Shown one piece after another: positions 13,403 to 63,460 of a stretch of DNA of 64,000 nt. The notes below the pieces were generated by a model. The model ran no database searches and was not told where the DNA came from. It worked only from the letters and a program-made list of their open reading frames with translations. The DNA comes from Candidatus Omnitrophota bacterium (lineage in GTDB: Bacteria > Omnitrophota > Gorgyraeia > Duberdicusellales > 4484-171): assembly GCA_021735655.1 (NCBI GenBank), contig JAIPGM010000002.1:1-64000 (forward strand), written 5' to 3'. The position numbers were made by a program, and so were the translations under genes. Every line of letters starts with the position of its first letter. The stretch's first letter is position 1.

Positions 13403-13711
13403 ACAGCGGCCCTTAAAGAGGCATTCGGGATAAAAAAAGGGGGGGGTGATTACGATGGCCAGACTGAAAAATATCAAGGAAAAGGCTAAGCGGGTAATCG
13501 AAAAAGCAAAAAGTAAAATGAAATGTAAATGTTGAAAGGCCTTGCTGTTAAAGGGAGTGCATTACAAATGAGATGAAAAACAAAAAGGTCAGAAGTGACT
13601 CATCTGCGCAAGATTGCCATTGAATAGCCAGCTAGCATCGTAGCAAGAAAGACTCAAGATCCTCTGCCGACGCTTTAAAAAAAGGGGGTCTTGAGTTTAT
13701 TTTTTCCCTTA

Positions 13712-13756
13712 TTGGACCAAGGTCCAATTTACATCATTTTTTCATTTTGATAATAT
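13712..13756 (+). promoter_or_regulatory. Second copy of the TTGGAC-N4-GTCCAA palindrome + TTTACA-17-TAATAT promoter, upstream of the nrnA ... arsSM operon
   Basis: ttggaccaaggtccaa tttaca tcattttttcattttga taatat. Compare 2818-2862. Confidence 0.55.
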
Positions 13757-13862
13757 CTATGTGTCAATTTAGGGCGGAGCATTCTCCGACAGAAGTTAAC
13801 TTAAAAATAGCCTAAAAATTAGGCAAAAGAGTATGCCGGGTTGCTGGGAAATTAGCTGAAAA

Positions 13863-18214: not shown

Positions 18215-20224
18215 ATGAACCCTTTTTTGAATGTTTTAGAATCACAAAATATACCGAAAGAATCCTGTTTAAAAAGAGCAGAGTTGACCACCCTGCAGGT
18301 TAATATGGGCGACCTTTGCAATCAAAGCTGTTCGCATTGTCATGTGGGCTCCTCGCCCCAGGGAAAGAAGATCATGCCGCTGGAAGTGGTTGACCGAATT
18401 TTAGAGTTTCTTTCAAAAAACAGAGGGCTGATATTGGATATAACCGGCGGCGCGCCGGAACTCAATCCCAATTTCGATTATTTCCTTGAGAAAGCAAGGC
18501 CGCTGGCCAGGGAGATTGTCATAAGGTCGAATCTGACCGTGTTTTTTGAACCCGGTAAAGAATACTTGCCCGAATTTTTTAAAAGGAATAACATACATCT
18601 TATATGTTCACTTCCCTGTTATGAGGAAAAAAATGTAGACGCCCAAAGAGGCCTGGGTGTATTTGAAAAGAGTATAAAAGCGCTTCAGCTGCTAAATAGC
18701 TGTGGATACTCTCAAGATAAAGAACTGGTCTTAGACCTTGCATATAATCCTAAAGGTATAAATCTGCCTCCTCAACAGGATATCCTTGAAAGAGAGTACA
18801 GAGAAAACCTTAAAAAAAGTTACGGAGTGGAATTTAACAGACTCGTTGCTATGACCAACGTTCCGATAAAAAGATTCAAGGAATATTTGGAAGCCAACGG
18901 CGAATATAGTAATTATGTCCGGCTCCTGGAAGATAATTTCAATCCTGATACGGTTACCGGTATTATGTGTCGGCGGTATCTCAGTGTAGGCTACGACGGA
19001 AAATTATACGACTGCGATTTTAACCAATCACTTAACTGGGCTTTAAAGGACGAGAAGGCTAAGCCTCTTAGTATAGATAAAGTAGATATAAAAGATATTG
19101 AAAACAGAGATGTTATGGTGGGGGAGCACTGTTTTTCATGTACCGCAGGCTTCGGTTCAAGCTGCCAGGGAGCGCTTGACATTAAGGAAACCGTAAAAGC
19201 GTATTACGGCAAAGTCCTTAAAACCACAAAAGACCTAAAGACGACCGCCTGTTGTTCAGTAGATGCTATGCCTAAAAAGCAAAGAGAATACTTGGCTAAA
19301 ATCCACCCCGAAATTTGTGATAAATTTTATGGCTGCGGCTCTCCTATCCCACCGCTTTTAAAGGACCTAAAAGTTTTGGATTTAGGTTGTGGCACAGGCA
19401 GGGATACTTATCTGGTTTCACAGATGGTAGGGAGCAGGGGTTTTGTTATCGGCGTCGACATGACCGATGAACAACTCGATATAGCGAGGAAGCACATTGA
19501 TTACCAGACAGAAAAATCCGGTTTTAAAAAGCCTAATGTTGATTTTAGGAAGGGTTATATAGAAAACCTAAAAAGTGTCGGTATAAAGGATAACTCTATA
19601 GACTTGGTTATATCAAACTGCGTTATTAATCTTTCACCGGATAAGATAGGGGTGTTCTCGGAAGTTTTCCGTGTCTTAAAACCGGGAGGTGAATTTTATT
19701 TCGCCGATGTATTCTGCGGCCGCCGGATGCCGGAACACCTCAAGCATGACTCGGTACTTTACGGTGAATGCCTGGGAGGGGCGCTTTACATAGAGGATTT
19801 TCGCCGTAGTTTAAGAAAAATCGGCTGTTTGGATTATAGAGTAGTAACTTCCCGAAGAATAGCGCTTAACAATAAAGAAGTTGAAGAGAAAGTCGGCGGG
19901 ATTGATTTTTACTCTATGACTATACGGGCTTTTAAGCTGGATGATTTGGAAGACATCTGCGAAGATTATGGCCAGACTGCTGTTTATCTTGGCACGATAT
20001 CCGGATGCGCGCACCAATTCAAACTTGACGATCATCATCTGTTTTTTACCGGCAAACCGATGCTTGTGTGTGGGAATACCGCTTCAATGCTTTCAAATAC
20101 ACGGTACGGTAAACATTTTAAAATAGTTGGAGATAAAAGCCGTCATTTTGGGCCGTTTCCCTGTGGGCCAACTCCCGCGGCATCAAAGACCGATGTAGTC
20201 AAAACCGGCGGCAGTTGTTGTTAA
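18215..20224 (+). CDS. arsSM: Fusion of arsenosugar-type radical SAM protein (ArsS-like) and arsenite S-adenosylmethionine methyltransferase (ArsM-like)
   Basis: N-term has the radical SAM cluster motif CNQSCSHC plus LSVGYDGKLYDCDFNQSL and a Cys-rich CFSCTAGFGSSC region. C-term has ArsM Cys pairs (TACCS, YGCGSP), the SAM motif VLDLGCGTGRD and VLKPGGEFYFADV. One continuous 669-aa ORF. Confidence 0.7.
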   Translation: MNPFLNVLESQNIPKESCLKRAELTTLQVNMGDLCNQSCSHCHVGSSPQGKKIMPLEVVDRILEFLSKNRGLILDITGGAPELNPNFDYFLEKARPLAREIVIRSNLTVFFEPGKEYLPEFFKRNNIHLICSLPCYEEKNVDAQRGLGVFEKSIKALQLLNSCGYSQDKELVLDLAYNPKGINLPPQQDILEREYRENLKKSYGVEFNRLVAMTNVPIKRFKEYLEANGEYSNYVRLLEDNFNPDTVTGIMCRRYLSVGYDGKLYDCDFNQSLNWALKDEKAKPLSIDKVDIKDIENRDVMVGEHCFSCTAGFGSSCQGALDIKETVKAYYGKVLKTTKDLKTTACCSVDAMPKKQREYLAKIHPEICDKFYGCGSPIPPLLKDLKVLDLGCGTGRDTYLVSQMVGSRGFVIGVDMTDEQLDIARKHIDYQTEKSGFKKPNVDFRKGYIENLKSVGIKDNSIDLVISNCVINLSPDKIGVFSEVFRVLKPGGEFYFADVFCGRRMPEHLKHDSVLYGECLGGALYIEDFRRSLRKIGCLDYRVVTSRRIALNNKEVEEKVGGIDFYSMTIRAFKLDDLEDICEDYGQTAVYLGTISGCAHQFKLDDHHLFFTGKPMLVCGNTASMLSNTRYGKHFKIVGDKSRHFGPFPCGPTPAASKTDVVKTGGSCC

Positions 20225-24095: not shown

Positions 24096-24106
24096 ATAAT
24101 AGATAT

Positions 24107-24162
24107 TTGAAACTTTTTTTATTTTTTAACATCTAAATCAGAATAAGGAGGTGAGGGTTATG
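24107..24162 (+). promoter_or_regulatory. ECF (sigmaE-type) promoter GAAACTT-N16-TCTAAAT plus conserved leader/RBS. Copy 1 of a duplicated ~56-58-bp element.
   Basis: ttgaaactttttttattttttaacatctaaatcagaataaggaggtgagggttatg. A near-identical copy is at 30909-30964. Confidence 0.6.
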
Positions 24163-24546
24163 TTAAGAAAGATATGTTCGTTGGGCCTTGGTTTGGTAAT
24201 GTTGTTTAGCCTGTCTGGATGCGCCTTGCTTTTAGCCGGGGCTGCCGGCGGCGCCGGAACAGCATTTTGGCTGGGCGGTAAGTTGGAAAGCGAAGTAGCG
24301 GCTAGTTACCAAAGGACTATCGATGCTAGCAAGCGAGCCTTGAGTTCGCTGGGTATGGAGATAGTTAAAGAAGCAAAATCAGATGAGGTTACTCAGATTC
24401 GCAGTGAGTACACTGATGGTAGAAAAGTCTGGTTAGATATCCGTAAGTTTAGCGAAAAAACTTCAAAGTTGGAAATTCGCGTTGGTGCCAAGGGTGATCA
24501 GGCAGCATCAACTAAGCTGTTGGAGCGGATCAAGAAATACCTTTGA
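24160..24546 (+). CDS. Lipoprotein (DUF3568-like)
   Basis: Lipobox LSGC after a hydrophobic signal, Gly-rich region. ATG at 24160 preferred over the GTG at 24151. Confidence 0.55.
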   Translation: MLRKICSLGLGLVMLFSLSGCALLLAGAAGGAGTAFWLGGKLESEVAASYQRTIDASKRALSSLGMEIVKEAKSDEVTQIRSEYTDGRKVWLDIRKFSEKTSKLEIRVGAKGDQAASTKLLERIKKYL

Positions 24547-26796: not shown

Positions 26797-28194
26797 ATGC
26801 AGTTAGCACGCAAAATTCTTTTTTATTTTTTTGTTTTGGCCTATTTAGTCCTCTGTCCTTTGCTTATTTTCTATTCTTTAGGCTATATTTATCAACCAAA
26901 AAAGAAAGATATTTCGCAAACCGGCCTGATCCACCTTGTCAGTATTCCGGCCGGAGCCCAGGTTTATCTGGATGGCCGGCGTTTCAAAGATAAAACTCCG
27001 GCTACGATCAGCGAACTTAATCCGGGAAGCTATCGGGTAAAGTTAAGGCTAAAGAACCGCCGGCCTTGGGTTCATGAGGTAACGGTTAAAGCGGGAAAAT
27101 CAGCGGCTTTTAAAAATATTCTCCTTTTGCCGCACAGTTTCGATAAAACAACTATCGGCCCCAAACGGGTTTATACCAATTTATATTCGCTAAAAAATTC
27201 CGACTATCTGATTGTTCAGCAAGGCCCCCGGCTTAAGGAATTTTATGTTTATGACTTAGCCGAAAAAAGTCTCAAAACCATTATTGATAAGGATTCTCAA
27301 TATGCCGAATTAGCGGTGGAGCGTTTATTCAGCGCTGCCGGCAGCACTTATCTGATTATCTACGGCGGTTCTTTATGGGACCGGCAGTATTTGCTTATTG
27401 ATTTTAAGGAAAAAAAGCCCGGTTTAAAAGAAATAAGCCGGCTTTTTTCTCGGCATCCCGATTGGCTGGTTTGGTCGGAAGATTTACCTGAGGATATTTT
27501 TTCTATTTATGGCGTCGGCCTCGACCGCTTGGACATTAAAAATTTATCGCTCTATCCGCAGTATTTTGAGAACATTAAGGGCTTTGGCTTGATGGATAAA
27601 CAGTTTTATGTCCTGGGCAAGGATAACTTGATCAGAAAATTAAGCCTGGATAAGCAGGAGGAGGCTATTCTATTTGAGGATGAACATTTGGGCCGGGAGT
27701 TGTTCGCCAAATCAGGGTTTTATCGCATAGAGCCGCTTAATAAGGATAAGCTTATTTTTTGGGGCCGGCGCGGTGACCTGGTGATGACTGTGCCGCCTTA
27801 TGCCATTTTTGATCAGGGGGTTTTGGGCATGGAATATGAGCGGTTTAACAGCCGGCTTCTGTTCTGGACCAAGCATGATATCTGGCTGGCCGAGTTTAAC
27901 GGCCAGGCCCAAGACGATGTTTTATTCAGGCAGCGCCTGCGCCTTAATAAGATATATGAAGGGGGCTTTAATTTAAGCCAATGCTTTTGGGTTTATAGCG
28001 CAAGCAATTTGCTGCTTAAAGACAAAACCGAGATTTATCTTTTGGGCTTAACTCCGGACGGCCGGCACCATAGAGAACATATTGTCAGCGCTAAACAAAA
28101 TACTGAAGTATTTTACTATGAGCCTGAAGGTTGTTTGTACTATTTAGATAAAAAGGGGGCCTTGGTGAAGCTTAAGCTTTTAGCGGCTGATTAG
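26797..28194 (+). CDS. PEGA-domain membrane-anchored protein
   Basis: N-terminal TM helix then a PEGA-like beta domain (SIPAGAQVYLDGRRFKDKTPATISELNPGSYRVKLRL). Confidence 0.5.
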   Translation: MQLARKILFYFFVLAYLVLCPLLIFYSLGYIYQPKKKDISQTGLIHLVSIPAGAQVYLDGRRFKDKTPATISELNPGSYRVKLRLKNRRPWVHEVTVKAGKSAAFKNILLLPHSFDKTTIGPKRVYTNLYSLKNSDYLIVQQGPRLKEFYVYDLAEKSLKTIIDKDSQYAELAVERLFSAAGSTYLIIYGGSLWDRQYLLIDFKEKKPGLKEISRLFSRHPDWLVWSEDLPEDIFSIYGVGLDRLDIKNLSLYPQYFENIKGFGLMDKQFYVLGKDNLIRKLSLDKQEEAILFEDEHLGRELFAKSGFYRIEPLNKDKLIFWGRRGDLVMTVPPYAIFDQGVLGMEYERFNSRLLFWTKHDIWLAEFNGQAQDDVLFRQRLRLNKIYEGGFNLSQCFWVYSASNLLLKDKTEIYLLGLTPDGRHHREHIVSAKQNTEVFYYEPEGCLYYLDKKGALVKLKLLAAD

Positions 28195-28207
28195 TAATAG
28201 AGATATT

Positions 28208-29854
28208 ATGGATTTTCAATATTCACGCCAGGGGGTTAAAGGTAGAGAAAAGAGTTGGCAGCGGTTTCTGGAGGTTCTGCCCGGGTTCCTGAGCTGGACA
28301 GTGATTATCGGAATAGTGGTGCTATCGGTGTTACAGCCTTTAACGGCGGCGGTGGTCATGATCGCTTTTCTGCTTTATTGGCTGCTGCGGCTTATCTACA
28401 TGAACATTTTTCTTTTGCTTTCGTATACCCGTCTGGAGATCGAAAAAACTACTGATTGGCAGGAGTGTATTGCCTCTGTGGACCGCTTGAAAGTCCAGAC
28501 GCCGGTTTTCTGCGGCCCGGCTAAACAGCGCAGCCTAAAAGAAACAATTGCCGCCCGTATCCATTACCGGCAATTGAGGAAGCTTAAAACAAGCAAGAAC
28601 CTGCCGCCTTCCTCGGAAAATATTTACCACTTGCTTATTTTGCCGGTTATCCGCGAAGCCCGGCAAGTGGTTGAGCCGGCTATTGAAGCGGTTAAGCAGG
28701 GGAGTTTTCCGGCCGAAAGATTTCTGGTAATCATTGCTCTTGAGGATTCAGCTTCCCAGAAAGTCAAGCAGCAGACGGATGAACTGCGGGAAAAATATAA
28801 AAACGTTTTTTTAGATTTTTTAGTCATTTTACATCCGGAAAACCAACCCGGGGAAGCTAAAGTTAAGGGGGCCAATGTAAGCTTTGCCGCCCGCCGGGCT
28901 CAAAGTTTTTTCAGCGCCAAAGGCATTAAGCCGGAAAATATCCTGGTATCCTGTTTTGACGCCGATACAGTGGCCAATCCCGATTATTTCAGCTGTCTTA
29001 CTTATCATTATCTGATAAATCCTCTTCGCCTGCAGTCAAGCTATCAGCCGATCCCGGTTTATCACAATAACATTTGGGAGGTTGCCGGTTTTGCCAGGAT
29101 CCTTGATATCGGCACTTCTTTCTTCCAGCTGATCGAAGCAACTAATCCCGGTAAATTGGTTACTTTTTCCAGCCATAGTATGAGTTTTAAGGCCTTGCAG
29201 GATGTCGGCTACTGGCCGGTGGATATGATTTCTGATGACTCGGCTATTTTCTGGAAGGCATTTATCCATTATCAGGGCAATTATCGGGTTAGGCCCATTT
29301 ATACAACAGTTTCTATGGATATTGCTGCCGGGCCAGGCCTAAAGGAGACTTTTACCGCAATTTATAAACAGAAGCGGCGCTGGGCCTGGGGAATAGAAAA
29401 TTTTCCGATTGTGGTAAGAGGATTTTTTCAGGTAAAAAAAATCAGTTTCAGCCGCAAGCTAAGTTACGGTTATAAATTGCTGGATGGTTTTGTCTCCTGG
29501 GCTACCTGGTCGTTTTTGTTATTACTCGGCAGCTGGCTACCGGCATTTTTTGCTTCTCGGGAATTTTCTTCCAGCACGGCCTATTACCTTGCCCCGCGCA
29601 TCCGCGGGATTATGTTTAGCCTGGCTTCAATCGGAATTATTATTTGTACGGTAATAAGTTTATTACTGCTTCCCCGAAGAGAAGGTAAACACGGAATCCT
29701 AATCGGGGTCAAACATATACTTGAATGGTTGTTTATCCCGGTGGCGCTTTTATTCTTGAGTGCCATACCGGCGCTTGATGCCCAAACCCGCCTTATGTTC
29801 GGAAAATATATGGAGTTCTCGGTAACCGGAAAATACCGTAAATCAAAATCCTAA
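28208..29854 (+). CDS. Processive family-2 glycosyltransferase (polysaccharide synthase, cellulose/chitin-synthase-like)
   Basis: N- and C-terminal TM helices flank a GT-A domain with motifs ALED, KVKGANVS, FDADTV (DxD), ISDDSA and Q-K-R-R-W (QxxRW). Confidence 0.7.
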   Translation: MDFQYSRQGVKGREKSWQRFLEVLPGFLSWTVIIGIVVLSVLQPLTAAVVMIAFLLYWLLRLIYMNIFLLLSYTRLEIEKTTDWQECIASVDRLKVQTPVFCGPAKQRSLKETIAARIHYRQLRKLKTSKNLPPSSENIYHLLILPVIREARQVVEPAIEAVKQGSFPAERFLVIIALEDSASQKVKQQTDELREKYKNVFLDFLVILHPENQPGEAKVKGANVSFAARRAQSFFSAKGIKPENILVSCFDADTVANPDYFSCLTYHYLINPLRLQSSYQPIPVYHNNIWEVAGFARILDIGTSFFQLIEATNPGKLVTFSSHSMSFKALQDVGYWPVDMISDDSAIFWKAFIHYQGNYRVRPIYTTVSMDIAAGPGLKETFTAIYKQKRRWAWGIENFPIVVRGFFQVKKISFSRKLSYGYKLLDGFVSWATWSFLLLLGSWLPAFFASREFSSSTAYYLAPRIRGIMFSLASIGIIICTVISLLLLPRREGKHGILIGVKHILEWLFIPVALLFLSAIPALDAQTRLMFGKYMEFSVTGKYRKSKS

Positions 29855-29856
29855 AC

Positions 29857-30900
29857 GTGAAAAGAGCTGTCAAATTTGCTTTATTTATTTTTCTCTTGAT
29901 AATCCCGCAAAAGACTTACGCTGAAGAAGTAAAGGTGGGGGTTACTTTCAGCCAGGTGCAGTGTGAGTATTTAGATTTGAATTGGCGAAAGATTTATAAA
30001 AAAACCATGGCTTTGGATTTAGATGTCATCCGTTTAGGGGCTTATTGGAGCCGGATTGAGAAAAGCCGCGATAAATTTGATTTTAGCGAACTTGATTGGC
30101 AGATTCAGCAGGCAAAAGAAAATAATATCCCGGTATTGCTTACTGTGGGAATGAAAGCGCCGCGCTGGCCGGAATATTTTATCCCGGCCTGGCTGATGAA
30201 GGATTTATCTTTTCGTTTTGGCTCAGCAGTTTCCGATCGAAAAATTATTAAGGAGCGTAGTCTGCTCTTTATCCGGCGGGTAGTTGAGCGCTACAAAAAG
30301 GAAGCTATCATTGTTGCCTGGCAGGTAGAAAATGAACCATTGAACAGAGCCGGCCCCAAGGATTGGCGGATACGGAACGATTTTTTGCAAGAAGAGATTG
30401 ATCTGGTAGAGAAACTGGATACGAGAAGCCGTCCTATCGTTATAAATGCGATGACTTATCTTAACCGAATATTAAGATTTTTTAACCGGCTTATTTACAC
30501 CAAGAATCCGGTCTATCAGATAATCGATATTGCTGATATTCCTGCTTTTAATATTTACTCGACTATCGGCCATAAACTCATTGGCCAGAAAATCTGTTTT
30601 TTGACTGTTCCTCAAAAACGTTTAAAATACCTTAAACGCTTTGTTGATTATGCGAAAGCTCAGGATAAAACGGTCTGGGTTACTGAGCTTCAGGCCGAAC
30701 CCTGGGAGCCAGGGGAATTGGTGCATATCCGTAAGGAAGCAGCGATTACCTGCAGAGCCGAAGATTTCCCGGTTAGTTTTGGGGAGCTGGAGTATTTAGG
30801 GGTGGATACGGTTTTTTTCTGGGGAGTTGAATACTGGTTTTACCGGATGCAGTATTATAAAGATAAAAGCTGGCTGGATGCTTTTGAGCAGATACCTTAA
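29857..30900 (+). CDS. Secreted glycoside hydrolase, clan GH-A (GH5-like TIM barrel)
   Basis: Signal peptide. Acid/base NEP motif (VAWQVENEPLN) and a later nucleophile Glu region (VWVTELQAEPWE). Confidence 0.55.
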   Translation: MKRAVKFALFIFLLIIPQKTYAEEVKVGVTFSQVQCEYLDLNWRKIYKKTMALDLDVIRLGAYWSRIEKSRDKFDFSELDWQIQQAKENNIPVLLTVGMKAPRWPEYFIPAWLMKDLSFRFGSAVSDRKIIKERSLLFIRRVVERYKKEAIIVAWQVENEPLNRAGPKDWRIRNDFLQEEIDLVEKLDTRSRPIVINAMTYLNRILRFFNRLIYTKNPVYQIIDIADIPAFNIYSTIGHKLIGQKICFLTVPQKRLKYLKRFVDYAKAQDKTVWVTELQAEPWEPGELVHIRKEAAITCRAEDFPVSFGELEYLGVDTVFFWGVEYWFYRMQYYKDKSWLDAFEQIP

Positions 30901-30908
30901 TCTAATTT

Positions 30909-30964
30909 TTGAAACTTTTCTTATTTTTTAGCATCTAAATTAAGATAAGGGGGTGAGGGTTATG
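30909..30964 (+). promoter_or_regulatory. Copy 2 of the ECF promoter/leader element (GAAACTT-N16-TCTAAAT ... GGGGGTGAGGGTTATG)
   Basis: ttgaaacttttcttattttttagcatctaaattaagataagggggtgagggttatg. About 90% identical to 24107-24162, including the start codon context. Confidence 0.6.
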
Positions 30965-31330
30965 CTAAAAGAAATAAGCCGGGAAGAATTAAGCGATTTG
31001 ATCGAATCAGGAGAAGATTTTAAATTAGTGGATGTTTTGAGCCGGGAAAGCTTTGCTAAAGGGCACATTAAAGGGGCGGTTTCAATTCCCTTAGCAGAAA
31101 TCGGCCGCAAATCCGCTAAGTTACTTAAAAAGAGGGATAAAATTGTAACTTATTGTGCTAGTTTTGAGTGTTCAGCCAGCACTACGGCTGCCAGGAAATT
31201 GATAGCTTTAGGTTATAAAAATGTTTTTGACTACAAAGGCGGGCTAAAGGATTACCAAGAAGGCGGCTTAAGCCTTGAAACCGGTGCAGGCCAGGCAGAC
31301 AAAAAATGCACTGTTTGTGGAGGAGCTTAA
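30962..31330 (+). CDS. Single-domain rhodanese (sulfurtransferase)
   Basis: Catalytic-loop Cys in IVTYCASFECSAS. ATG at 30962 preferred. Confidence 0.75.
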   Translation: MLKEISREELSDLIESGEDFKLVDVLSRESFAKGHIKGAVSIPLAEIGRKSAKLLKKRDKIVTYCASFECSASTTAARKLIALGYKNVFDYKGGLKDYQEGGLSLETGAGQADKKCTVCGGA

Positions 31331-31346
31331 GGAAAGGAGGCTTATC

Positions 31347-31655
31347 ATGAAACAAGAAAAAATGAAATTCCGCGTCTGTCCGTCGGTGAGTATGAACTAC
31401 AGCGATGATGGTAACAGCATTACCACTGAAATAGACTTGGCTGGAGTTAAGAAAAAAGATATCTCTTTAGAGAGTGGTAAAGCTGGTTTTTGCTTGAAGG
31501 CCGGCAAGGAAGACCTGATTTTTGACTCTTGTTATCGGTTTTGCGAAGAGGTAGATGCCGAAAAAATTAATGCTGAATTTCGCAATGGCATGTTGAGGAT
31601 AACTGCACCGGTAGAAAAGAGCTTTTTACATGCCAGAAAGATTTCGGTTCACTAA
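31347..31655 (+). CDS. Hsp20/alpha-crystallin family small heat-shock protein
   Basis: ITTEIDLAGVKKKDISLE ... FRNGMLRITAPV (IxI-like end). GGAGG RBS before the ATG at 31347. The track start at 31275 is an over-extension into the rhodanese gene. Confidence 0.75.
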   Translation: MKQEKMKFRVCPSVSMNYSDDGNSITTEIDLAGVKKKDISLESGKAGFCLKAGKEDLIFDSCYRFCEEVDAEKINAEFRNGMLRITAPVEKSFLHARKISVH

Positions 31656-31665
31656 GAAAAAAAAG

Positions 31666-31697
31666 GGGGGTAAAAATTTTTAAGCCCCCTTTTTTTA
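31666..31697 (+). terminator. Rho-independent terminator (GGGGGG ... GCCCCC + T7), symmetric with an A-run upstream
   Basis: aaaaaaaaggggggtaaaaatttttaagccccctttttttac read directly. Confidence 0.6.
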
Positions 31698-31887
31698 CTG
31701 TCCTCAAGCTAGCTATATCCTGTTATAATAGTTGCCTATGAGAATCTACATTCGTATAGCCGATGGCCGATTTATGGTAAGTCGATGATGCCGCTCGTCA
31801 CGGCGTTGGTGGAGTAGACAACACGCACCGTCATCCTGAGGAGGAGTGAAGCGACGACGAAGGATCTCAACAAAATTGGAGGGTAAA

Positions 31888-32214
31888 ATGAATGTTTTAG
31901 AAAATATCCCGTATAATGACGATAAAATGGGGAATCGCAAACTGGTCGATGAAAAGCACCTGCTTGTTATGCAAATAGCGTTAAAGCCGGGGCAAAGTGT
32001 GCCTCAGCATAACGCTAATTCAAACGTTCATCTTCTGGTTGTAAGGGGCAATGATTTAACGGTCAATCTTGACGGTGCTGATAATCAGGTTAAGAAAGGC
32101 GATCTATTGCCGGTCGCCTTTCAAGCGCCGATGATCATTAAAAACACCGGCAGTATTGACGCCACATTTTTAGTGTTTAAAACGCCCAATCCGTCAGAAA
32201 TGGGGACGGTATAG
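31888..32214 (+). CDS. Cupin-domain protein
   Basis: Small beta-barrel with a conserved His (PQHNANSNVHLLVVRG ... KKGDLL). RBS GGAGGG before the ATG at 31888. Confidence 0.55.
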   Translation: MNVLENIPYNDDKMGNRKLVDEKHLLVMQIALKPGQSVPQHNANSNVHLLVVRGNDLTVNLDGADNQVKKGDLLPVAFQAPMIIKNTGSIDATFLVFKTPNPSEMGTV

Positions 32215-32215
32215 C

Positions 32216-32584
32216 GTGAAAATCAGGGATAGTGGAATGCCGGATAAGGGGATGTGGAAAGGTTTCTTTTTCCCTGCTCAAACGTTAGAAACGCTCGAAT
32301 TCAATAGCGGTGTTCGCGATGCTGTGGAATTTGGGTGTGGCTATGGCACATTTACGATTCCGGCCGCTAGGATCATTAAAGGTGTGGAGTATCAAAGCAT
32401 AAGCACCGATAAATTCAATACTATTGAGCAGGCAGAGAAGTTTATGCAAGATGGTGGCAAAATACTTGCCTGCGGAACTTGTATTAAATCTCGCAATCAA
32501 GAAGGCACCGAAATGTGCCCGATCAACACGATGAAGGACATGTACGATATCGTTAAAGAATCTGATAAGGTAGTAACCTTTTAA
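32216..32584 (+). CDS. Hypothetical protein with a DsrE/DsrF-like C-terminal region
   Basis: GCGYG glycine-rich motif, then ILACGTCIKSR and a DVVKESDKVVTF end resembling the DsrE/TusD family. Start codon uncertain (GTG 32216 or ATG 32234). Confidence 0.35.
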   Translation: MKIRDSGMPDKGMWKGFFFPAQTLETLEFNSGVRDAVEFGCGYGTFTIPAARIIKGVEYQSISTDKFNTIEQAEKFMQDGGKILACGTCIKSRNQEGTEMCPINTMKDMYDIVKESDKVVTF

Positions 32585-32598: not shown

Positions 32599-32958
32599 AT
32601 GATAAATATTTTACTTTATATTTTAATCGGCCTATTCGCGGGCGCGATAAGCGGTTTAATTGGAATAGGAGGGGGAATCATCATTGTTCCCGCCCTTATT
32701 TATCTCTTTAAGTTTTCTCAGCATGCAGCTCAAGGGACAACTTTGGCGATGTTAATACCGCCTATTGGCATACTGGCGGCTTTAGCGTATTATAAGCAGG
32801 GACACGTTAATTTTCCGGTGGCAGGATTTATATGTTTGGGATTTGTTATCGGCGGATTCTTAGGCGCGAAATTCGCGGTAGGATTTCCGGAAGTTGTGTT
32901 AAGAAAAATATTCGGAGCGTGTCTTTTGGGTATAGCGAGTTATATGATTATTAAATAA
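32599..32958 (+). CDS. TauE/SafE (TSUP) family 4-TM half-size membrane protein
   Basis: GAISGLIGIGGGIIIVPALIY motif typical of DUF81/TSUP. Confidence 0.65.
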   Translation: MINILLYILIGLFAGAISGLIGIGGGIIIVPALIYLFKFSQHAAQGTTLAMLIPPIGILAALAYYKQGHVNFPVAGFICLGFVIGGFLGAKFAVGFPEVVLRKIFGACLLGIASYMIIK

Positions 32959-33012
32959 TCGATAGGCGATGGGGTTCGCCGTTAACCGCCTCAACAGGCT
33001 GATAACTCCTAC
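32958..33012 (+). promoter_or_regulatory. Fluoride riboswitch (crcB RNA motif)
   Basis: ataGGCGATGGggTTCGCCgttAACCGCCtcaacaggCTGATAACTCCTAC matches the crcB-motif consensus, directly upstream of the crcB RBS. Confidence 0.85.
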
Positions 33013-33036
33013 TTAAATGAAAGGAGGGATTTGTCT

Positions 33037-33423
33037 ATGTTGAGGCTTTTTTATATTGCTTTTGGTGGCGCCGCTGGCGCTTTATTGCGCTATTGGGCTT
33101 CAGGGCTGGCACATAGAATCGGAGGCAGTAGTTTCCCGTGGGGGACATTGAGCGTTAATCTCATAGGATCTTTTCTTATAGGTTTTTTATGGGGAATGTT
33201 TGAATCCGTTATCGTTTCCCAGAATACGCGAATTCTGATTTTTATTGGATTGCTTGGTTCTTTTACGACATTCTCCACGTTTTCGCTGGAGAGCTTTCAC
33301 CTGATCCGGGACGGTGAATACGGTCTTTTCATAGCAAATATATTATCGAGTTTTGCATTAGGTATATTACTAGTTTTTGCCGGATATTTTTTAAGCCGTT
33401 TTTTATTTAACATAGCGCGCTAA
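33037..33423 (+). CDS. crcB: Fluoride ion channel CrcB/Fluc
   Basis: FGGAAGALLRY ... TLSVNLIGSFLIGF ... LGSFTTFSTFSLE. Confidence 0.85.
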   Translation: MLRLFYIAFGGAAGALLRYWASGLAHRIGGSSFPWGTLSVNLIGSFLIGFLWGMFESVIVSQNTRILIFIGLLGSFTTFSTFSLESFHLIRDGEYGLFIANILSSFALGILLVFAGYFLSRFLFNIAR

Positions 33424-33437: not shown

Positions 33438-33770
33438 ATGAAACTGCCTGAAGAAGGAACATTGTTAAGGATATTCATAGGGGAATCCGACAAGTATAAG
33501 GGCAAGCCGTTATATGAGCAGATCGTTCTTAAAGCCAGAGAACTAAACTTGGCAGGAGCCACAGTTTTACGGGGGCTTATGGGTTTTGGGGCGGACAGCC
33601 ACATGCATTCGGCTAAAATCTTGAGGCTTTCCGAGGATTTGCCGGTGATTATTGAGCTTGTGGATACTGAAGAGAATTTAAACAAGCTCCTGCCTTTTTT
33701 AGATGAAACCGTGCAAGAAGGGCTGATTACGCTTGAAAAGGTTAGAGTCATAAAATACCGTCATAAGTAG
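33438..33770 (+). CDS. DUF190 protein (PII-like, crcB-associated)
   Basis: LLRIFIGESDKYKGKPLYEQIV ... ATVLRGLMGFG. Classic member of the fluoride-riboswitch regulon. Confidence 0.75.
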   Translation: MKLPEEGTLLRIFIGESDKYKGKPLYEQIVLKARELNLAGATVLRGLMGFGADSHMHSAKILRLSEDLPVIIELVDTEENLNKLLPFLDETVQEGLITLEKVRVIKYRHK

Positions 33771-34413: not shown

Positions 34414-35013
34414 ATGTCGCAAAGCATTGAGAATAAAGTAGTTAGCAGGATTTATGGTAAGAATAGGGGTTGGGTATTCACTCCAAATCACTTTCTTGAC
34501 CTTGGAAGCCGTACAGCCGTGGCTCAAGCCTTGGGGCGGTTGGCAAAAGCCGGTACTATTCGCCGATTGGCACATGGACTATATGATTATCCTGAGAAAC
34601 ACCCTACGCTGGGCGATCTTCCGCCTAACTATGAGCGGATAGCCCAAGCTTTGGCAGGAAGGGATAGTTTAAAAATTCAGCCATCGGGGGCGTATGCCGC
34701 CAATCTGCTCGGGCTTACTGAGCAGGTTCCTGCAAAGATTGTTTTTCTGACTGACGGCCCTAATCGCAAAGTACAAATAAACAAACAGCAGGTTGTCTTA
34801 AAAAGGACAACTCCTAAAAATATGGCCACTGCCATGCGGGTGAGCGGTCTGGTTATCCAGGCTCTGCGTCATTTAGGCCAAGATCATGTGGATGATAAAA
34901 TAATCGGGATGCTTAAGAAAAGATTATCCAGCGATGACAAGCGTCAGCTTATAAACGACCTTCGTTACGCTCCTGTATGGATAGGAAATATATTTCGGCA
35001 ATTACAAGGATAA
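34414..35013 (+). CDS. abiEi: AbiEi-family antitoxin/transcriptional regulator (type IV TA / abortive infection)
   Basis: N-terminal winged-helix AbiEi_4-like region (VFTPNHFLDLGSRTAVAQALGRLAKAGTIRRLAHGLYDY). Confidence 0.7.
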   Translation: MSQSIENKVVSRIYGKNRGWVFTPNHFLDLGSRTAVAQALGRLAKAGTIRRLAHGLYDYPEKHPTLGDLPPNYERIAQALAGRDSLKIQPSGAYAANLLGLTEQVPAKIVFLTDGPNRKVQINKQQVVLKRTTPKNMATAMRVSGLVIQALRHLGQDHVDDKIIGMLKKRLSSDDKRQLINDLRYAPVWIGNIFRQLQG

Positions 35014-35020
35014 GAAGCCT

Positions 35021-36046
35021 GTGGACAAATTCGTATTATTGAGTGATAAAGACAAACGCGCCTATTTCGAAGTAGCCGCGGCTGACTTGAATGTAATGCC
35101 ACAGCTTATTGAAAAGGATTTCTGGGTTTGTTGGATACTCAGGACCCTTTTTTCGTTACCGTCATCAGGCAGTCACTTGACATTTAAGGGCGGTACATCA
35201 CTTTCAAAATGCTATGACGTTATCAGGCGTTTTTCAGAAGATGTCGATATTTCGATAGAAAGGTCTTTTTTATCAAGCCAACAGGCCATTGAACCTAAAA
35301 AACAAGAAAGTAACAAAGAAAACCAGCGAAGACTTGAAAGGTTACAGTTAGCCTGTCAAGCAAAGATCAGCGGCACTCTAATCCCAGAACTGAAAAAAAG
35401 TATTGCCGCTATTCTGACCGATAGAAAAAAATGGAATCTCGAAATCGATTCTAACGACGCATTAAAGCAGACAGTTTTGTTTACTTTCCCACACGCTTTG
35501 ACAAATAGTATGGAAAGCTACGTAAAGGCCGCTGTTAAAATTGAGTTTGGTTCCAGAGCCGACCATTGGCCTGTTGAAAATATGGCTGTTACGCCATATG
35601 TTGCTAATGTTTCAGACGATGTGACTATTGAAGGTGCATCAGTGCGTGTTTTAGCCGCAGAGCGGACCTTTTGGGAGAAAGCGACCATACTTCATATGAT
35701 ATATCATTATCCTGAAGGTAAGAATGTGCCTCCGCGGATGTCGCGGCACTATTATGATTTATTCGCGATGGTAGATTCTTTTGTATACAAGAAATCTTTA
35801 GAAAAAATATCGCTATTGAAACATGTATCCGATCATAAGTCTTTATTTTTTAAAGCTAACTGGGCGCATTATGAAGAGGCTAAACCGGGCAGCTTGCGGC
35901 TGGTGCCGCGCGATGACCAAATAAGCCAGTTGAAAACTGATTACCGACAAATGCAACAAATGTTTTTTGAGGATCCCCCGTCATTTGAGAGTGTTTTAGA
36001 GAAACTAAAAATAGCGGAAGATAAGATTAGCAGGGTCAAACAATGA
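35021..36046 (+). CDS. abiEii: AbiEii/AbiGii-family nucleotidyltransferase toxin (DUF1814)
   Basis: NTase motif FKGGTSLSKCYDVIRRFSEDVDI. 341 aa. Immediately downstream of abiEi. Confidence 0.7.
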   Translation: MDKFVLLSDKDKRAYFEVAAADLNVMPQLIEKDFWVCWILRTLFSLPSSGSHLTFKGGTSLSKCYDVIRRFSEDVDISIERSFLSSQQAIEPKKQESNKENQRRLERLQLACQAKISGTLIPELKKSIAAILTDRKKWNLEIDSNDALKQTVLFTFPHALTNSMESYVKAAVKIEFGSRADHWPVENMAVTPYVANVSDDVTIEGASVRVLAAERTFWEKATILHMIYHYPEGKNVPPRMSRHYYDLFAMVDSFVYKKSLEKISLLKHVSDHKSLFFKANWAHYEEAKPGSLRLVPRDDQISQLKTDYRQMQQMFFEDPPSFESVLEKLKIAEDKISRVKQ

Positions 36047-59135: not shown

Positions 59136-59210
59136 GGCCCCATCGTCTAGTCCGGCCTAGGACACATGGTTCTCAGCCATGAGACACCGGTTCGAATCCG
59201 GTTGGGGCTA
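59136..59210 (+). tRNA. tRNA-Glu (anticodon CTC)
   Basis: Manual cloverleaf fold: acceptor GGCCCCA/TGGGGCT, D-arm GTCT-AGTCCGGCCTA-GGAC, anticodon arm CATGG-TTCTCAG-CCATG, T-arm ACCGG-TTCGAAT-CCGGT. Followed by a T-run. Confidence 0.8.
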
Positions 59211-59262
59211 CTGTTTTTATTTCTCCCTATTGAATCCCCCCCTGTAGTGGTATAATTTAACT

Positions 59263-59925
59263 ATGAGAAAAGGATTTACCCTAATCGAACTAATAGTGGT
59301 CATTGCAATTATTGCAATTTTAGCTGCCATTATTGCTCCTAATGCTTTTAAAGCTATTGAGAAGGCAAAGATTGCAAAAACTATAGCCGAATTAAGGGTT
59401 TTCAAAACTGCTGCACATTCTTTGTATTCTGATACTGGTCGATGGCCAGGCTCTGGCGGAATTGGACCTATTGCTCAGTGGGTTTATCTTGATAATGGAT
59501 TAATTTGGCCGAGAACCCCTGCTGGTTTAAATAGCAGCTTGTTTGATAATGATGATGGAGTAGGAAATACAATTTCTGGTTGGGACGGACCGTATCTTGA
59601 TCGCCGATCATCTAAATCCGCTTGGGGTGGAACTTATGCTATGTATAAACGTTACAATGGTTTTCCTCAAACTGGATCTAGTGCCGGCGATCTTACTCTT
59701 GTTATTACTAGCATTTGTTATGGGTCACTTAATTCAGTGCTATCTAACAGGAATTGCCCTTTGAGTGAAGAATTAGCGGAGATAATTAATGGTAAAATTG
59801 AAGGCGACAATGATTTACGTTTTGACCAATCAACCGCCGGAAATTTTAGAAAGTTCCTTTGGGCTAACTCGGGTGATACTTGGGAAGGTTTTTATCATTT
59901 CATGATTGGAGAAGACGTTTTATAG
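59263..59925 (+). CDS. Type IV pilin-like protein (prepilin N-terminal cleavage/methylation domain)
   Basis: MRKG|FTLIELIVVIAIIAILAAIIAPNAF with Glu+5. Confidence 0.8.
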   Translation: MRKGFTLIELIVVIAIIAILAAIIAPNAFKAIEKAKIAKTIAELRVFKTAAHSLYSDTGRWPGSGGIGPIAQWVYLDNGLIWPRTPAGLNSSLFDNDDGVGNTISGWDGPYLDRRSSKSAWGGTYAMYKRYNGFPQTGSSAGDLTLVITSICYGSLNSVLSNRNCPLSEELAEIINGKIEGDNDLRFDQSTAGNFRKFLWANSGDTWEGFYHFMIGEDVL

Positions 59926-59938
59926 GGGGAGGCATCCC

Positions 59939-60496
59939 ATGAAAAAATCATTCACTCTAATCGAACTTATAGTAGTCATCGCTATTATAGCTATCCTTGC
60001 CGCAATTATTGCCCCGAATGCTTTTCGGGCTATTGAGAAGGCGAAGGTGGCTCAGGTGGTATCAGATTTAAAGACATTTAAAACAGCTGCTGTAGGTTAT
60101 TATGGGGATACTGGGCAGTGGCCACCAGATGGGGTTAGTTGGTTTACTGATGAAGAGCTGCAGTTTTTCATTACTGGAGTAGGGCAACCAGCAGGCTGGG
60201 ATGGACCCTATTTAGAAAGTTGGCCAAATCCACCTTGGCATTGTGAATTTGTCTATGGTGCTGATACGGTTCATGAAAATTATGATTGGGACCACTGGGT
60301 GGGGTGGTCTTATTGGGGTGTAGTGCCTGCGAATACTGATACTTGCGGTGCAAGTATTTCATGCGTTCCTCAAAAGTCAGCGACAAAGATAGATGTTAGT
60401 TTAGATGACGGTAACCCTTCTTCGGGCAGGGTTCGTTGGGTCAGCTCATATGCCGGTGGTTTCATGAATGCAATTATCATCGAAGGAGGACAGTAA
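59939..60496 (+). CDS. Type IV pilin-like protein, paralog 2
   Basis: MKKS|FTLIELIVVIAIIAILAAIIAPNAFRAIEKAK. GGGGGAGG RBS before the ATG at 59939. Confidence 0.8.
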   Translation: MKKSFTLIELIVVIAIIAILAAIIAPNAFRAIEKAKVAQVVSDLKTFKTAAVGYYGDTGQWPPDGVSWFTDEELQFFITGVGQPAGWDGPYLESWPNPPWHCEFVYGADTVHENYDWDHWVGWSYWGVVPANTDTCGASISCVPQKSATKIDVSLDDGNPSSGRVRWVSSYAGGFMNAIIIEGGQ

Positions 60497-60531
60497 AGGC
60501 CTGATTTGCATTGATAAGAGAAATAACTACT

Positions 60532-61134
60532 ATGAAAAAATCATTTACTCTCATTGAACTAATTGTAGTCATAGCTATCATTGCTATCCTTGCTGCAATC
60601 ATTGCTCCCAATGCCTTTCGTGCCATTGAGAAAGCTAAAATTACAAAAACCATTGCTGATCTAAAAGCCATAAAAACTGCCATTGGGGCTATGTATGCTG
60701 ATACTGGAAAATTTCCCAGCGGCTGTATTGCCTTTACCGTCAATGACCCTGAAGTTAATTTAGATACGGCACAGGCAGGGTTGGTATCCGAACCTCCGGT
60801 TGGAATTTTTACTGGCGCTACCGGCGGCACTTGTGAGTGGACCCAAGCTAATGTCAATTCTTGGGATGGTCCTTACCTTGAAAGCGGGCAAGTAAAGGAT
60901 GTTTGGCATTCAGCATATCATTATGACCCTGATTATTATTATTGCATAAATGGATATTTAAGCCCAGCTGGAGACGGGCCAATAACTAATTGCGGTGACG
61001 CTCCGGTAGCTCAAACTTGTCTAGAGGTATGCGGCGGCGCCTTTAACTGTGGCTTTCCAGTAATACAATCATTTGGCCCTGACAAAAGCGGTTATGGTTG
61101 TGATGATATTATAGTAAAAATGACACTCAATTAG
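60532..61134 (+). CDS. Type IV pilin-like protein, paralog 3
   Basis: Same N-terminal 35 aa as paralog 2, Cys-containing variable C-terminus. ATG at 60532. Confidence 0.8.
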   Translation: MKKSFTLIELIVVIAIIAILAAIIAPNAFRAIEKAKITKTIADLKAIKTAIGAMYADTGKFPSGCIAFTVNDPEVNLDTAQAGLVSEPPVGIFTGATGGTCEWTQANVNSWDGPYLESGQVKDVWHSAYHYDPDYYYCINGYLSPAGDGPITNCGDAPVAQTCLEVCGGAFNCGFPVIQSFGPDKSGYGCDDIIVKMTLN

Positions 61135-61280
61135 TGAAAAATAAATAGATAATTAACCACTTTTCCAATCCCAATCAACCCAAAACCGACTATTTCCTTT
61201 CCGTTTGACCACTTTTTACCAAGATGGTTGACAGTTTGGTTGACATCTTACGCTTAACTACTTGAGCCATAATAGTTTTA

Positions 61281-61324
61281 ATAGGACGCATGGTTCTTAG
61301 TCATGAGACACCGGTTCGAACTCG
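61281..61324 (+). other. Degenerate partial copy of the tRNA-Glu gene (D-stem 3' half through T-loop, about 39/44 identical)
   Basis: ataggacgcatggttcttagtcatgagacaccggttcgaactcg versus taggacacatggttctcagccatgagacaccggttcgaatccg at 59158-59201. The matching 3' acceptor end ggttggggcta reappears at 61453-61463 after a 128-bp GC-rich insert. Confidence 0.5.
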
Positions 61325-61619
61325 CAATTATTTAGGTTTTTACCTCTCGAGTCCATGAGTACGCCGAAGGCGTACGAATGAATCCTTCCGCCTGCGGACT
61401 AAAGTCCTCGGCGGAATCCCGCCGAATCCGCCAAAGGCAGATGCAGGCGGGAGGTTGGGGCTATTTGTTTTCATTTTTTCTTCAGAATTTTAGTAAATCC
61501 CATACGAATTAGTTTTCTATCTTTAAGGATGAGGCCAGGCTATATTTTGAGGTGGCATAAGAGTCAGCTGATGATATAATATGCTTAGTTCTAGAAGCAG
61601 TACATAAAGGGAGTAAAAG

Positions 61620-62543: not shown

Positions 62544-63460
62544 AGAATAGCAACGATACAAAAATCAATAATTCACTTTCCGGCATACTTTGTTGTATAA
62601 ATTTCAACGAAGTGCACTACGACAATATAGAATTTTTAAAAGATTTGTATAGCAATTTTGTTGATGTAGTTTTTTACGGGCCAGAGCGGAAGCAGGGGTT
62701 CGAAGTAAATCAATTATGCCACCATCGTGGCTATTTTAGTTATGCAGTGATATTAGACGCAATTAAAAAATTTCCAGATTACAATGGATATATATTTGTT
62801 AATGATGATTGTATCATGAATATATGGCAATTCATAAATAAAGACAAGACTAAAGTATGGTTGCAGCCGTTTCATTCTAAAGTTAATCGCCATGATTATA
62901 AAGAAAGCACATGGTTTTGGCTGAATGAGCCATGCGGTATCTCTGCTTATGGTAAAGCTTTCTTGCAAATCCCGCGTAGATACCGTGAAAGGCTTAAATC
63001 GTCATTTGGGTCTGAAGATGCTGTGATTTGTGGACCTGCTGATTGTTTTTATTTGCCCAAAAGACGGATAAATGATTTTGCTTCCTTGTTTGATATATAT
63101 TTTTCCAACAGGGTGTTTACTGAAATAGCGGTGCCTACTGGCCTATACGCAATCGAAGATAAGGCACAAATTACAGTTTTCAAGGGTCATGACAGAGTGA
63201 CATTTCCTTTGTCATTTATTCCTTATGACCTAAAAGCAAAAATATTCTACAGAGGAGAGTTGGACTTATACCATCCTTTAAAATTGTCTAATTCTAAAAT
63301 GAGATCTATGGTTAAAAATATGTTTAATGTATATCTTTTTCAAAGAAATAAATTTTTTTCAAAAATTTTAAGATTATGCGATTTGCTACGTCCTTTTATT
63401 TGGTTTTGGGCATATATGTATATGATTCAGGGGAGATTTTTGAGAAAGATTCGTTATTGA
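62540..63460 (+). CDS. Hypothetical GT-A-like protein (possible DUF5672-like)
   Basis: YIFVNDDC motif. Translationally coupled to the previous gene. AT-rich. Confidence 0.3.
   Translation: MKNSNDTKINNSLSGILCCINFNEVHYDNIEFLKDLYSNFVDVVFYGPERKQGFEVNQLCHHRGYFSYAVILDAIKKFPDYNGYIFVNDDCIMNIWQFINKDKTKVWLQPFHSKVNRHDYKESTWFWLNEPCGISAYGKAFLQIPRRYRERLKSSFGSEDAVICGPADCFYLPKRRINDFASLFDIYFSNRVFTEIAVPTGLYAIEDKAQITVFKGHDRVTFPLSFIPYDLKAKIFYRGELDLYHPLKLSNSKMRSMVKNMFNVYLFQRNKFFSKILRLCDLLRPFIWFWAYMYMIQGRFLRKIRY

Follow-up and report, generated by a model that had tools for sequence, protein, structure and literature searches.

A rhodanese and a minimal small heat-shock protein encoded behind a predicted ECF sigma factor promoter in an Omnitrophota genome

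What would place a rhodanese and a small heat-shock protein (sHSP) side by side behind a single promoter, and to which signal would such a promoter respond? The question is raised by a 64-kb stretch of DNA (hereafter the window; positions 1 to 64,000 of contig JAIPGM010000002.1, GenBank assembly GCA_021735655.1) from a Candidatus Omnitrophota bacterium, in which an earlier note had described a rhodanese-Hsp20 mini-operon under the second copy of an extracytoplasmic function (ECF) promoter. The Omnitrophota, bacteria that have not been cultured, are for the most part anaerobes and in many cases very small. To our knowledge, regulation within this phylum is essentially unstudied, and a literature search found no prior account of a rhodanese-sHSP operon or of ECF regulation in Omnitrophota. 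We consider it probable that the two genes form a stress operon transcribed from a promoter of the ECF sigma factor encoded 6.8 kb upstream, and that they belong to a thiol-oxidative regulon similar to that of SigR/RsrA. Contigs of relatives that were fetched for comparison carry locus labels such as L034.

The first line of evidence is a 72-nt repeat that occurs twice in the window with 85% identity (Table 1), as expected from the earlier claim that a second promoter/leader copy stands ahead of the operon. In the alignment the likeness of the two copies extends from the -35 element to roughly 15 nt inside the coding regions, where it fades. A search with the pattern TGAAAC-N15-18-CATCTA gave exactly two matches in the window, at 24108 and 30910, where 0.05 were expected, and two or more matches were obtained in none of 100 shuffles. 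Both sites have the layout of ECF-type promoters, that is an AAC-containing -35 element, a 16-nt spacer, and a short C-containing -10 element. A short A/G-rich leader lies between the -10 element of copy 2 and the Shine-Dalgarno sequence, and folding of the leader from the -10 element to the ATG revealed no significant structure. The two copies have the spacer, leader, Shine-Dalgarno sequence and the first five or so codons in common, whereas orthologous promoters of other genomes diverge in the spacer, which suggests that the whole promoter-leader cassette was recently duplicated within the source lineage. The usual order in relatives is sigma gene, motif, and rhodanese gene. In the window, the motif that follows the sigma gene precedes a gene for a DUF3568 lipoprotein, and the near-identical copy 2 precedes the rhodanese-sHSP pair 6.8 kb away.

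Table 1. Coordinates of the operon, its predicted promoter and the associated sigma factor gene in the window
Feature	Position	Strand	Details and evidence
ECF sigma factor (regions 2 and 4) with soluble CHCC ZAS-like tail, C207-x25-H233-x3-C237-x2-C240	23268..24095	+	presumed cognate sigma of the motif
Promoter/leader repeat, copy 1	24103..24174	+	TGAAAC 24108-24113, CATCTAAAT 24130-24138; begins 8 nt past the sigma stop codon
DUF3568 lipoprotein gene behind copy 1	24160..24546	+	Pfam PF12092, E 1.6e-25
Promoter/leader repeat, copy 2 (-35, T-rich spacer, -10, leader, Shine-Dalgarno, first codons)	30905..30976	+	85% identical to 24103-24174
Copy 2 -35 element TGAAAC	30910..30915	+	pattern search
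Copy 2 -10 element CATCTAAAT	30932..30940	+	separated from -35 by a 16-nt spacer
Shine-Dalgarno GGGGGTGA of the rhodanese gene	30949..30956	+	read from the sequence; 5 nt before ATG 30962
Rhodanese, 122 aa, loop YCASFECS, C-terminal tail KKCTVCGGA	30962..31330	+	Pfam PF00581
Shine-Dalgarno AAAGGAGG of the sHSP gene	31333..31340	+	read from the sequence; in the 16-nt intergenic gap, 6 nt before ATG 31347
Mini-sHSP, 102 aa: alpha-crystallin domain and C-terminal I-S-V; Cys 11, 49, 62, 66	31347..31655	+	PF00011, AF2, Foldseek
Intrinsic terminator: A-tract, GGGGGG/CCCCC stem with inner A/T stem, T-tract	31657..31696	.	folding energy

The same motif recurs next to orthologous sigma genes in other Omnitrophota. 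Contigs around sigma homologues were collected and the region 3' of each sigma gene was inspected; the sigma genes that precede the motif in L031, L034 and L037-L041 are orthologous, with 40-50% identity. A rhodanese gene follows GGGAAC-N16-CATCTAAAT in L034 and L038, TGAAAC-N17-CATCTAAT in L037, TGAAAC-N17-CATCTAAAT in L039, and TTGAAC-N18-CATCTAAAT in L040, and in L038 it is succeeded by a 26-aa open reading frame (ORF), a 101-aa mini-sHSP and a hairpin. In L031-33 (TGAAAC-N16-CATCTAAAT) and L041 (TGAAAC-N16-CATCAAAAC) only a small Cys-rich ORF stands behind the motif, split in L041 by a possible frameshift, and in L035 the orthologous sigma gene is present and no motif was seen after it. 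Such Cys-rich ORFs of roughly 40-47 aa (L031 10906-11037; L037 8410-8547; L039 3498-3623; L040 7243-7386; L041 6842-6990) follow this promoter motif as well, some of them downstream of the rhodanese gene and others on their own; they share C-x-[VI]-C close to the N-terminus, a later P-[LMV]-I-x-C and a C-terminus of basic character, and most of them are missing from the source annotations.

A metagenome scan with the rhodanese alignment as query yielded 80 loci, 27 of which have an orthologous sigma gene directly upstream on the same strand; in at least 24 metagenome loci the motif follows the orthologous sigma gene. A loose version of the motif pattern matched 28 times at the expected position upstream of rhodanese genes (about 12 kb searched) and 27 times in the other ~694 kb, both strands included, where most of the matches were weak variants; we calculate the enrichment to be about 60-fold. 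Neither sigma gene nor motif was found in 47 loci, which on the whole contain more distant rhodaneses and of which 22 have at least 1 kb of upstream sequence, so that the link between sigma gene, motif and rhodanese is specific to one clade. In L060 and L061 the motif and rhodanese gene are located behind amtB-glnB with no sigma gene nearby, an arrangement that resembles copy 2 of the window. The presence of the motif away from sigma genes, at copy 2, ahead of an sHSP gene in L001 and in L060/L061, amounts to a regulon-like distribution. A strict-looking match on the minus strand of L056 lies within a cold-shock gene with no gene downstream and was judged to be a chance match.

In total, 33 distinct instances of the motif, all from Omnitrophota contigs, were compared, and conservation was judged at positions that the search pattern leaves free. 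The majority sit between the orthologous sigma and rhodanese genes. The T, G and A of TGAAAC at such free positions are kept in 29, 31 and 24 instances, the trailing A and T of CATCTAAAT in 30 and 26, and a G precedes the -10 element in 28; the spacer is 16 nt long in 27 of the 33, and a CTTTT run after the -35 element is conserved while the middle of the spacer varies. This pattern looks like that of an ECF target promoter, and the co-location of motif and sigma gene, together with the conservation of the motif, suggests dependence on that sigma factor. The reading of the repeat as an ECF promoter, which had been proposed from the window alone, is therefore supported by a motif that is kept in 33 loci and follows orthologous ECF sigma genes across genomes.

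The sigma factor itself offers a clue to the signal. It is a protein of 275 aa with Sigma70_r2 and r4_2 domains, and its best NCBIfam matches are PRK11922 and the SigW models (PRK09641, E 5e-33; TIGR02948, E 1e-27), all below the equivalog cut-offs. Its family comprises about 35 clusters of proteins of 250-275 aa that are 40-50% identical, and the members named by source are from Omnitrophica; a scan of genome contigs with the single sigma protein retrieved only distant ECF sigma factors (25-35% identity; Bacillales and others) and no orthologues. The C-terminal extension of about 85 residues has invariant C207, F230, H233, C237, C240, C259, D261 and P263 among 28 aligned homologues, in all of which it is fused in frame and is not a separate downstream protein. 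No hydrophobic segment can be read from its sequence. The zf-HC2 model PF13490 scored 19.1 bits on the tail in the window (E 0.0014), below the threshold of 22.2, and is recorded in precomputed annotation for several of the sigma homologues. Rajasekar et al. defined the ZAS motif as HxxxCxxC with a Cys or His 23-26 residues upstream, and showed that only the type with Cys at that position (CHCC) senses disulfide or peroxide stress, as in RsrA (PMC4960319). With H233, C237 and C240 forming HxxxCxxC and C207 located 26 positions before H233, the Omnitrophota tail fits the CHCC type exactly as far as residue pattern is concerned.

The genes found near the sigma gene point in the same direction. 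In the window the MsrAB gene precedes the sigma gene by 1.7 kb and has the same orientation, in L034 MsrAB is divergent from it, and L039 has MsrB nearby. Thioredoxin, glutaredoxin and rubredoxin genes are found in the neighbourhood in L031, peroxiredoxin and DJ-1 in L040, desulfoferrodoxin and peroxiredoxin in L037, and peroxiredoxin, desulfoferrodoxin, rubrerythrin, rubredoxin, flavodiiron, glutaredoxin and thioredoxin-reductase-like genes in L041. Taken together, the CHCC tail and these oxidative-stress neighbourhoods make thiol-oxidative stress the best reading of the signal, which lends support to the earlier suggestion of a thiol-stress or proteotoxic-stress module.

The following mechanism can be envisaged. 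The sigma factor would be a single polypeptide that carries a soluble RsrA-like CHCC ZAS domain at its C-terminus. Under reducing conditions the zinc-bound tail would probably silence regions 2 and 4 in cis. On thiol oxidation or exposure to thiol-reactive compounds a disulfide would form and zinc would be expelled, and the sigma factor thus freed would fire TGAAAC-N16-CATCTAAAT promoters. The rhodanese gene would be the conserved primary target, with the sHSP gene carried on the same transcript in the source lineage and the hairpin ending that transcript.

Parts of this scheme are familiar from other bacteria. In SigR-RsrA of Streptomyces coelicolor and SigH-RshA of Mycobacterium tuberculosis, both of group ECF12, a zinc anti-sigma factor with the same CHCC pattern frees the sigma factor on disulfide stress (PMC4960319), and the SigR and SigH regulons are devoted to thiol and protein repair. 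The system described here differs in that the ZAS domain is fused to the C-terminus of sigma instead of being encoded by a separate downstream gene, in that it belongs to the Omnitrophota and has a rhodanese instead of thioredoxin as its conserved adjacent target, and in that the window shows no copy of the promoter ahead of the sigma gene that could serve autoregulation. SigR and SigH also recognize a motif different from TGAAAC-N16-CATCTAAAT. The inclusion of an sHSP has a parallel in the M. tuberculosis sHSP gene acr2, which has promoter sites for SigH/SigE and shows induction during oxidative stress (PMC3976341). The SigW type (ECF30) of Bacillus subtilis is also comparable, SigW models being among the best matches of the sigma factor (below the equivalog cut-offs). 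The SigW promoter shares with the motif the TGAAAC -35 element, the T-rich sequence next to it and the spacer length of 16 nt, but its -10 element is CGTA where the Omnitrophota have CATCTAAAT. RsiW is a membrane ZAS of the HHCC type that is removed by proteolysis (PMC4960319), in contrast to the fused soluble CHCC tail seen here. Finally, the actinobacterial groups ECF48, ECF52 and ECF53 also combine a sigma factor and a zinc-finger anti-sigma-like domain in one polypeptide; their extensions reach up to 400 residues, contain extracytoplasmic domains in addition to one or two transmembrane helices, and are presumed to undergo proteolytic removal (PMC8999054), whereas the tail of the Omnitrophota protein is short and free of hydrophobic segments.

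Turning to the presumed targets, the first gene encodes a rhodanese, in agreement with its earlier description as a single-domain member of the sulfurtransferase family: residues 7-100 match PF00581 as a single domain with 70.6 bits (cut-off 22.2) and E 1.7e-19. The residue in the catalytic position, C65, opens the active-site loop (IVTYCASFEC) after the central beta-strand, aligns with the Cys of PDB rhodaneses and is kept in at least 90% of 41 aligned homologues, among which a second loop Cys, C70, is invariant. The sulfurtransferase-type loop CxxGxR(S/T) is not matched, the loop in the window being C-A-S-F-E-C-S without Gly or Arg, and none of the NCBIfam equivalog cut-offs is reached. The protein falls into a subfamily of about 100 homologue clusters, mainly from Omnitrophota, with the near-invariant signature YCASFEC(Q/S)AS (two Cys, no Gly/Arg) and in most members a Cys-rich C-terminal tail (CxxC or CCxC). 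The closest solved structures in the PDB are generic rhodaneses. As judged from NCBIfam and PDB similarity, GlpE and PspE, the latter of which belongs to a stress operon, are comparable in that they are single-domain proteins of ~100-120 aa with the catalytic Cys at the loop start; the rhodanese in the window differs from both in its second loop Cys, its lack of Gly/Arg and its additional Cys-rich tail, and scores far below their equivalog cut-offs. The CASFEC loop and CxxC tail suggest that it is probably a persulfide- or disulfide-handling enzyme. The ATG at 30962, favoured in the earlier note over an over-extended frame from 30953, holds as the start codon, as GTG 30953 falls within the Shine-Dalgarno sequence GGGGGTGA and the N-termini of the 41 homologues line up with the ATG.

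The second gene encodes an sHSP of unusually small size, and here too the assignment made from the letters alone is borne out. PF00011 matches the protein with 32.2 bits (cut-off 20.8; E 1.2e-7) and was matched by 45 of 45 aligned family members, with a best E of 3e-17; PDB sHSPs were matched as well. The AF2 model (pLDDT 92.4) has eight strands, the first starting at residue 8, arranged in the beta-sandwich of the alpha-crystallin fold, and its top PDB matches in Foldseek are the sHSPs 4rzk, 3w1z, 5zul, 1gme and 1shs. The best of these is the alpha-crystallin domain of Sulfolobus Hsp20.1 (4rzk; TM 0.73/0.84, root-mean-square deviation 2.1 Å). Hsp14.0/14.1 and Hsp16 of S. pombe have the same beta-sandwich and also a C-terminal I/V-x-I/V, present here as I99-S-V101, with Ile or Val at those two positions in 41 and 43 of the 45 members. 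Models of the ArsA_HSP20 and CS-domain families were considered as alternative identities and set aside, as they match just 19-22 of the 45 and give weaker matches than HSP20. No identical sequence was found for the protein in a look-up, and a search of 1.84 billion representatives returned 153 relatives at E<=1e-3, the bulk of which are 92-105 aa long; the aligned members span 92-104 aa. The start codon is the ATG at 31347, as had been proposed; TTG 31275, where the over-extended frame begins, falls inside the rhodanese gene, and the N-termini of 45-55 mini-sHSP homologues line up with the ATG. The orthologue in L001 is without the second Met, and that in L003 uses GTG as its first codon.

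In comparison with other minimal sHSPs, the members of this family of 92-105 aa have no N-terminal domain, with only about 10 residues ahead of the first strand, and carry a co-varying Cys pair. Among 55 sequences, C49 and C62 are both present in 35, both absent in 15 and present singly in 5 (Fisher p 8e-9, uncorrected for phylogeny). In the model the two residues are located on the two strands (47-54 and 57-64) of one hairpin, and the hairpin register would have them face each other if the turn is formed by residues 55-56. The mini-sHSP probably either curbs the aggregation of proteins damaged by oxidation or is subject to a redox switch itself. The holdase role given to it in the earlier note is not assured for this minimal form.

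How general is the pairing of the two genes? L003, in which the sHSP is 95% identical, has the end of a glycoside-hydrolase (GH)-like gene, the motif, rhodanese, sHSP and hairpin in the same order as the window. In L001 and L002 (sHSP 76% identical; metagenome-assembled genome GCA_016935525.1) there is no rhodanese gene, and the sHSP gene alone follows TGAAAC-N16-TATCTAAAT and ends with a hairpin, so the motif stays with the sHSP gene despite a changed gene order. A mini-sHSP of this kind (type A) is part of a rhodanese operon in the window and L003, a second kind (type B, about 35% identical to type A) in L038, L070 and L084, where a 26-aa basic ORF lies between the two genes, and in L064 a full-length sHSP follows the rhodanese. 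Yet among 27 metagenome loci that are associated with the sigma gene or the motif and extend far enough downstream, just 2 have the sHSP gene, so the pairing is not a core feature. The rhodanese is thus the predicted core target, and the sHSP a recurrent but occasional accessory. For the window the proposed mini-operon is borne out, as two genes with a 16-nt gap and one terminator.

Two further observations concern the history of these genes. The gene ending at 30900, immediately ahead of the operon, is glycoside-hydrolase-like and the last of a trio of PEGA, glycosyltransferase-2 (GT2) and GH-like genes; the type-A mini-sHSP gene adjoins this trio (26797-30900 in the window, 10412-14571 in L001) on its downstream side in the window and L003 and on its upstream side in L001. 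At 13455-13535 the window also contains a 26-aa basic ORF, MARLKNIKEKAKRVIEKAKSKMKCKC, that is 85% identical to the ORF between rhodanese and mini-sHSP in L038, and it is followed up to position 13626 by an out-of-frame relic of the L038-type (type-B) mini-sHSP gene with an internal deletion of ~240 nt. The segment 13455-13626 looks like a decayed second copy of the type-B module.

At its 3' end the operon is closed by the strong GGGGGG/CCCCC hairpin with T-run that had been described. The G-run 31665-31670 pairs with the C-run 31685-31689 and seven T residues follow; the folding energy is -18.3 kcal/mol (z -3.26) on the plus strand and -16.8 kcal/mol (z -1.6) on the minus strand, and the orthologous genes in L001 and L003 end with a hairpin in the same position. 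A simple terminator scan missed it because its shape is outside the stem-loop pattern of that scan (loop 3-8). The hairpin had been called bidirectional, and its structure is indeed symmetric, but reverse termination is not needed as the next gene (31888) is also on the plus strand and there is no convergent gene. Directly after the terminator, an extended -10 element TGTTATAAT at 31721-31729 is probably the promoter of this next gene, which encodes a cupin. The leader of ~160 nt that follows the terminator is G+C-rich and folds no better than shuffles (z 0.19), for which reason a riboswitch in it was dropped as a candidate, and Rfam at E<=1 over 30850-31950 gave no RNA family except chance matches on the terminator.

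Several points weigh against a thiol-oxidative ECF operon. The rhodanese loop lacks the usual Gly/Arg, and the sHSP is devoid of the N-terminal domain through which canonical sHSPs bind their substrates. Common ECF -10 elements are CGTC or CGTA, from which the core CATC departs. The absence of a motif upstream of the sigma gene in the window, which has only the two matches given above, means that the usual ECF autoregulation is not evident there. The stop codon at 30900 is only 9 nt before the -35 element of copy 2 and no terminator was found between them, so read-through into the rhodanese-sHSP pair is possible; the low frequency of the sHSP among related loci is a further point. Finally, the sHSP orthologue in L001 is situated between an ACR3/SBF-type transporter gene with a low-molecular-weight-phosphatase-type ArsC-like gene, which it follows, and the PEGA-GT2-GH trio, and in L003 an ArsR-like ORF starts past the terminator.

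These arsenic-type neighbours would fit an alternative, namely that the signal is a metalloid or metal (arsenite, soft metals) that the Cys-rich sigma tail senses in the manner of CorE and that rhodanese and sHSP bind or buffer. CorE and CorE2 sense metals through Cys-rich C-terminal extensions (PMC8999054), but these have the CorE Cys-rich domain plus CxC, and the tail of the Omnitrophota sigma is an exact CHCC ZAS pattern. Metal-related genes are also found elsewhere, such as ArsP in L041, a cation-efflux gene in L040, Zip transporters in L031 and L034 and, in the window at 18215-20224, a 669-aa fusion of a radical S-adenosylmethionine (SAM)/DUF3641 (ArsS-like) and a SAM methyltransferase (ArsM-like) part that ends with GGSCC; most sigma neighbourhoods, however, are dominated by peroxide, superoxide and thiol-repair genes. 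We regard a metal signal as unlikely, with the reservation that arsenite is itself thiol-reactive and that the two readings partly overlap.

It could also be argued that the repeat is a mere relic of duplication and that the genes are expressed by read-through from the PEGA, glycosyltransferase and glycoside-hydrolase-like genes, as the close spacing without a terminator would allow, or from a housekeeping promoter for which TTGAAA could act as a weak sigma-70 -35 element. A sigma-70 scan did not list this site, and a relic would be at odds with -35 and -10 elements that persist in 33 distinct loci next to a largely variable spacer, and that also precede the orthologous sHSP gene in L001 in another gene context; this scenario seems to us highly improbable. 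Equally hard to credit is a routine role of the rhodanese in sulfur trafficking (cofactor or tRNA thiolation, sulfite or thiosulfate) with the sHSP as a mere neighbour, for although a DsrE/YedF-like fragment and a TauE/SafE half-transporter are encoded 0.6-1.3 kb downstream and the rhodanese is weakly similar to the rhodanese domains of MoeB and MoeZ, a strong terminator and then a separate extended -10 promoter intervene, the genes downstream are not shared by L003, conservation links the rhodanese to the sigma gene and not to a set of sulfur-relay genes, and the sHSP is adjacent to it in at least five independent arrangements.

The thiol-oxidative reading can also be extended into a more elaborate model, which in its entirety we would consider doubtful. 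In this model the sigma-ZAS protein and the adjacent rhodanese would be a dedicated two-gene unit for disulfide or sulfane-sulfur signalling in strictly anaerobic Omnitrophota, with the rhodanese resetting or triggering the ZAS domain by thiol/persulfide exchange; the mini-sHSP would be a redox-switched holdase in which a cross-strand C49-C62 pair opens and closes a substrate or dimer interface, and the 45-aa Cys-rich ORFs would be thiol-buffer members of the regulon.

The window contains a number of other features. A fluoride riboswitch (RF01734, 62.7 bits) at 32956-33018 immediately precedes crcB (33031-33423), which is followed by a DUF190 gene (33438-33770); this is the standard arrangement. 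An ORF of 122 aa at 32216-32584 resembles the start of a SAM methyltransferase in its N-terminal half and DsrE/YedF in its C-terminal half, both as weak matches; the two genes are separate and side by side in L034, and the ORF may thus be a deletion fusion. At 34414-36046 a type IV toxin-antitoxin pair consists of a DUF6088/AbiEi-like gene and a gene for an AbiEii nucleotidyltransferase toxin. A 52-nt repeat (2812-2863 and 13706-13757; 85% identical) includes the operator-like palindrome TTGGAC-n4-GTCCAA. Lastly, a tRNA-Glu(CTC) gene at 59136-59211 and, 2.1 kb downstream, a 39-nt copy of the 3' half of the tRNA (61282-61320; 92% identical) bracket three of four paralogous prepilin-like genes (59252-63644) with a common N-terminal helix; the tRNA gene and its partial copy could be an integration scar.

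What appears to be new at this locus is a predicted ECF stress regulon of the ZAS type that combines a fused soluble sensor, a distinct promoter, an uncharacterised two-Cys rhodanese and a minimal sHSP. It offers a sigma factor with a predicted built-in redox switch and a sharply defined motif, TGAAAC-N16-CATCTAAAT, together with a small conserved set of candidate targets made up of the two-Cys rhodanese, an sHSP of ~100 aa, small Cys-rich peptides and the DUF3568 lipoprotein. As a natural single-chain sigma/anti-sigma protein, the sigma factor would be a compact model of ZAS inhibition in cis and could serve as a one-gene redox-responsive switch. The mini-sHSP family, with ~150 representative clusters, raises the question of how the alpha-crystallin domain functions without an N-terminal domain, and whether its Cys pair may act as a redox switch.

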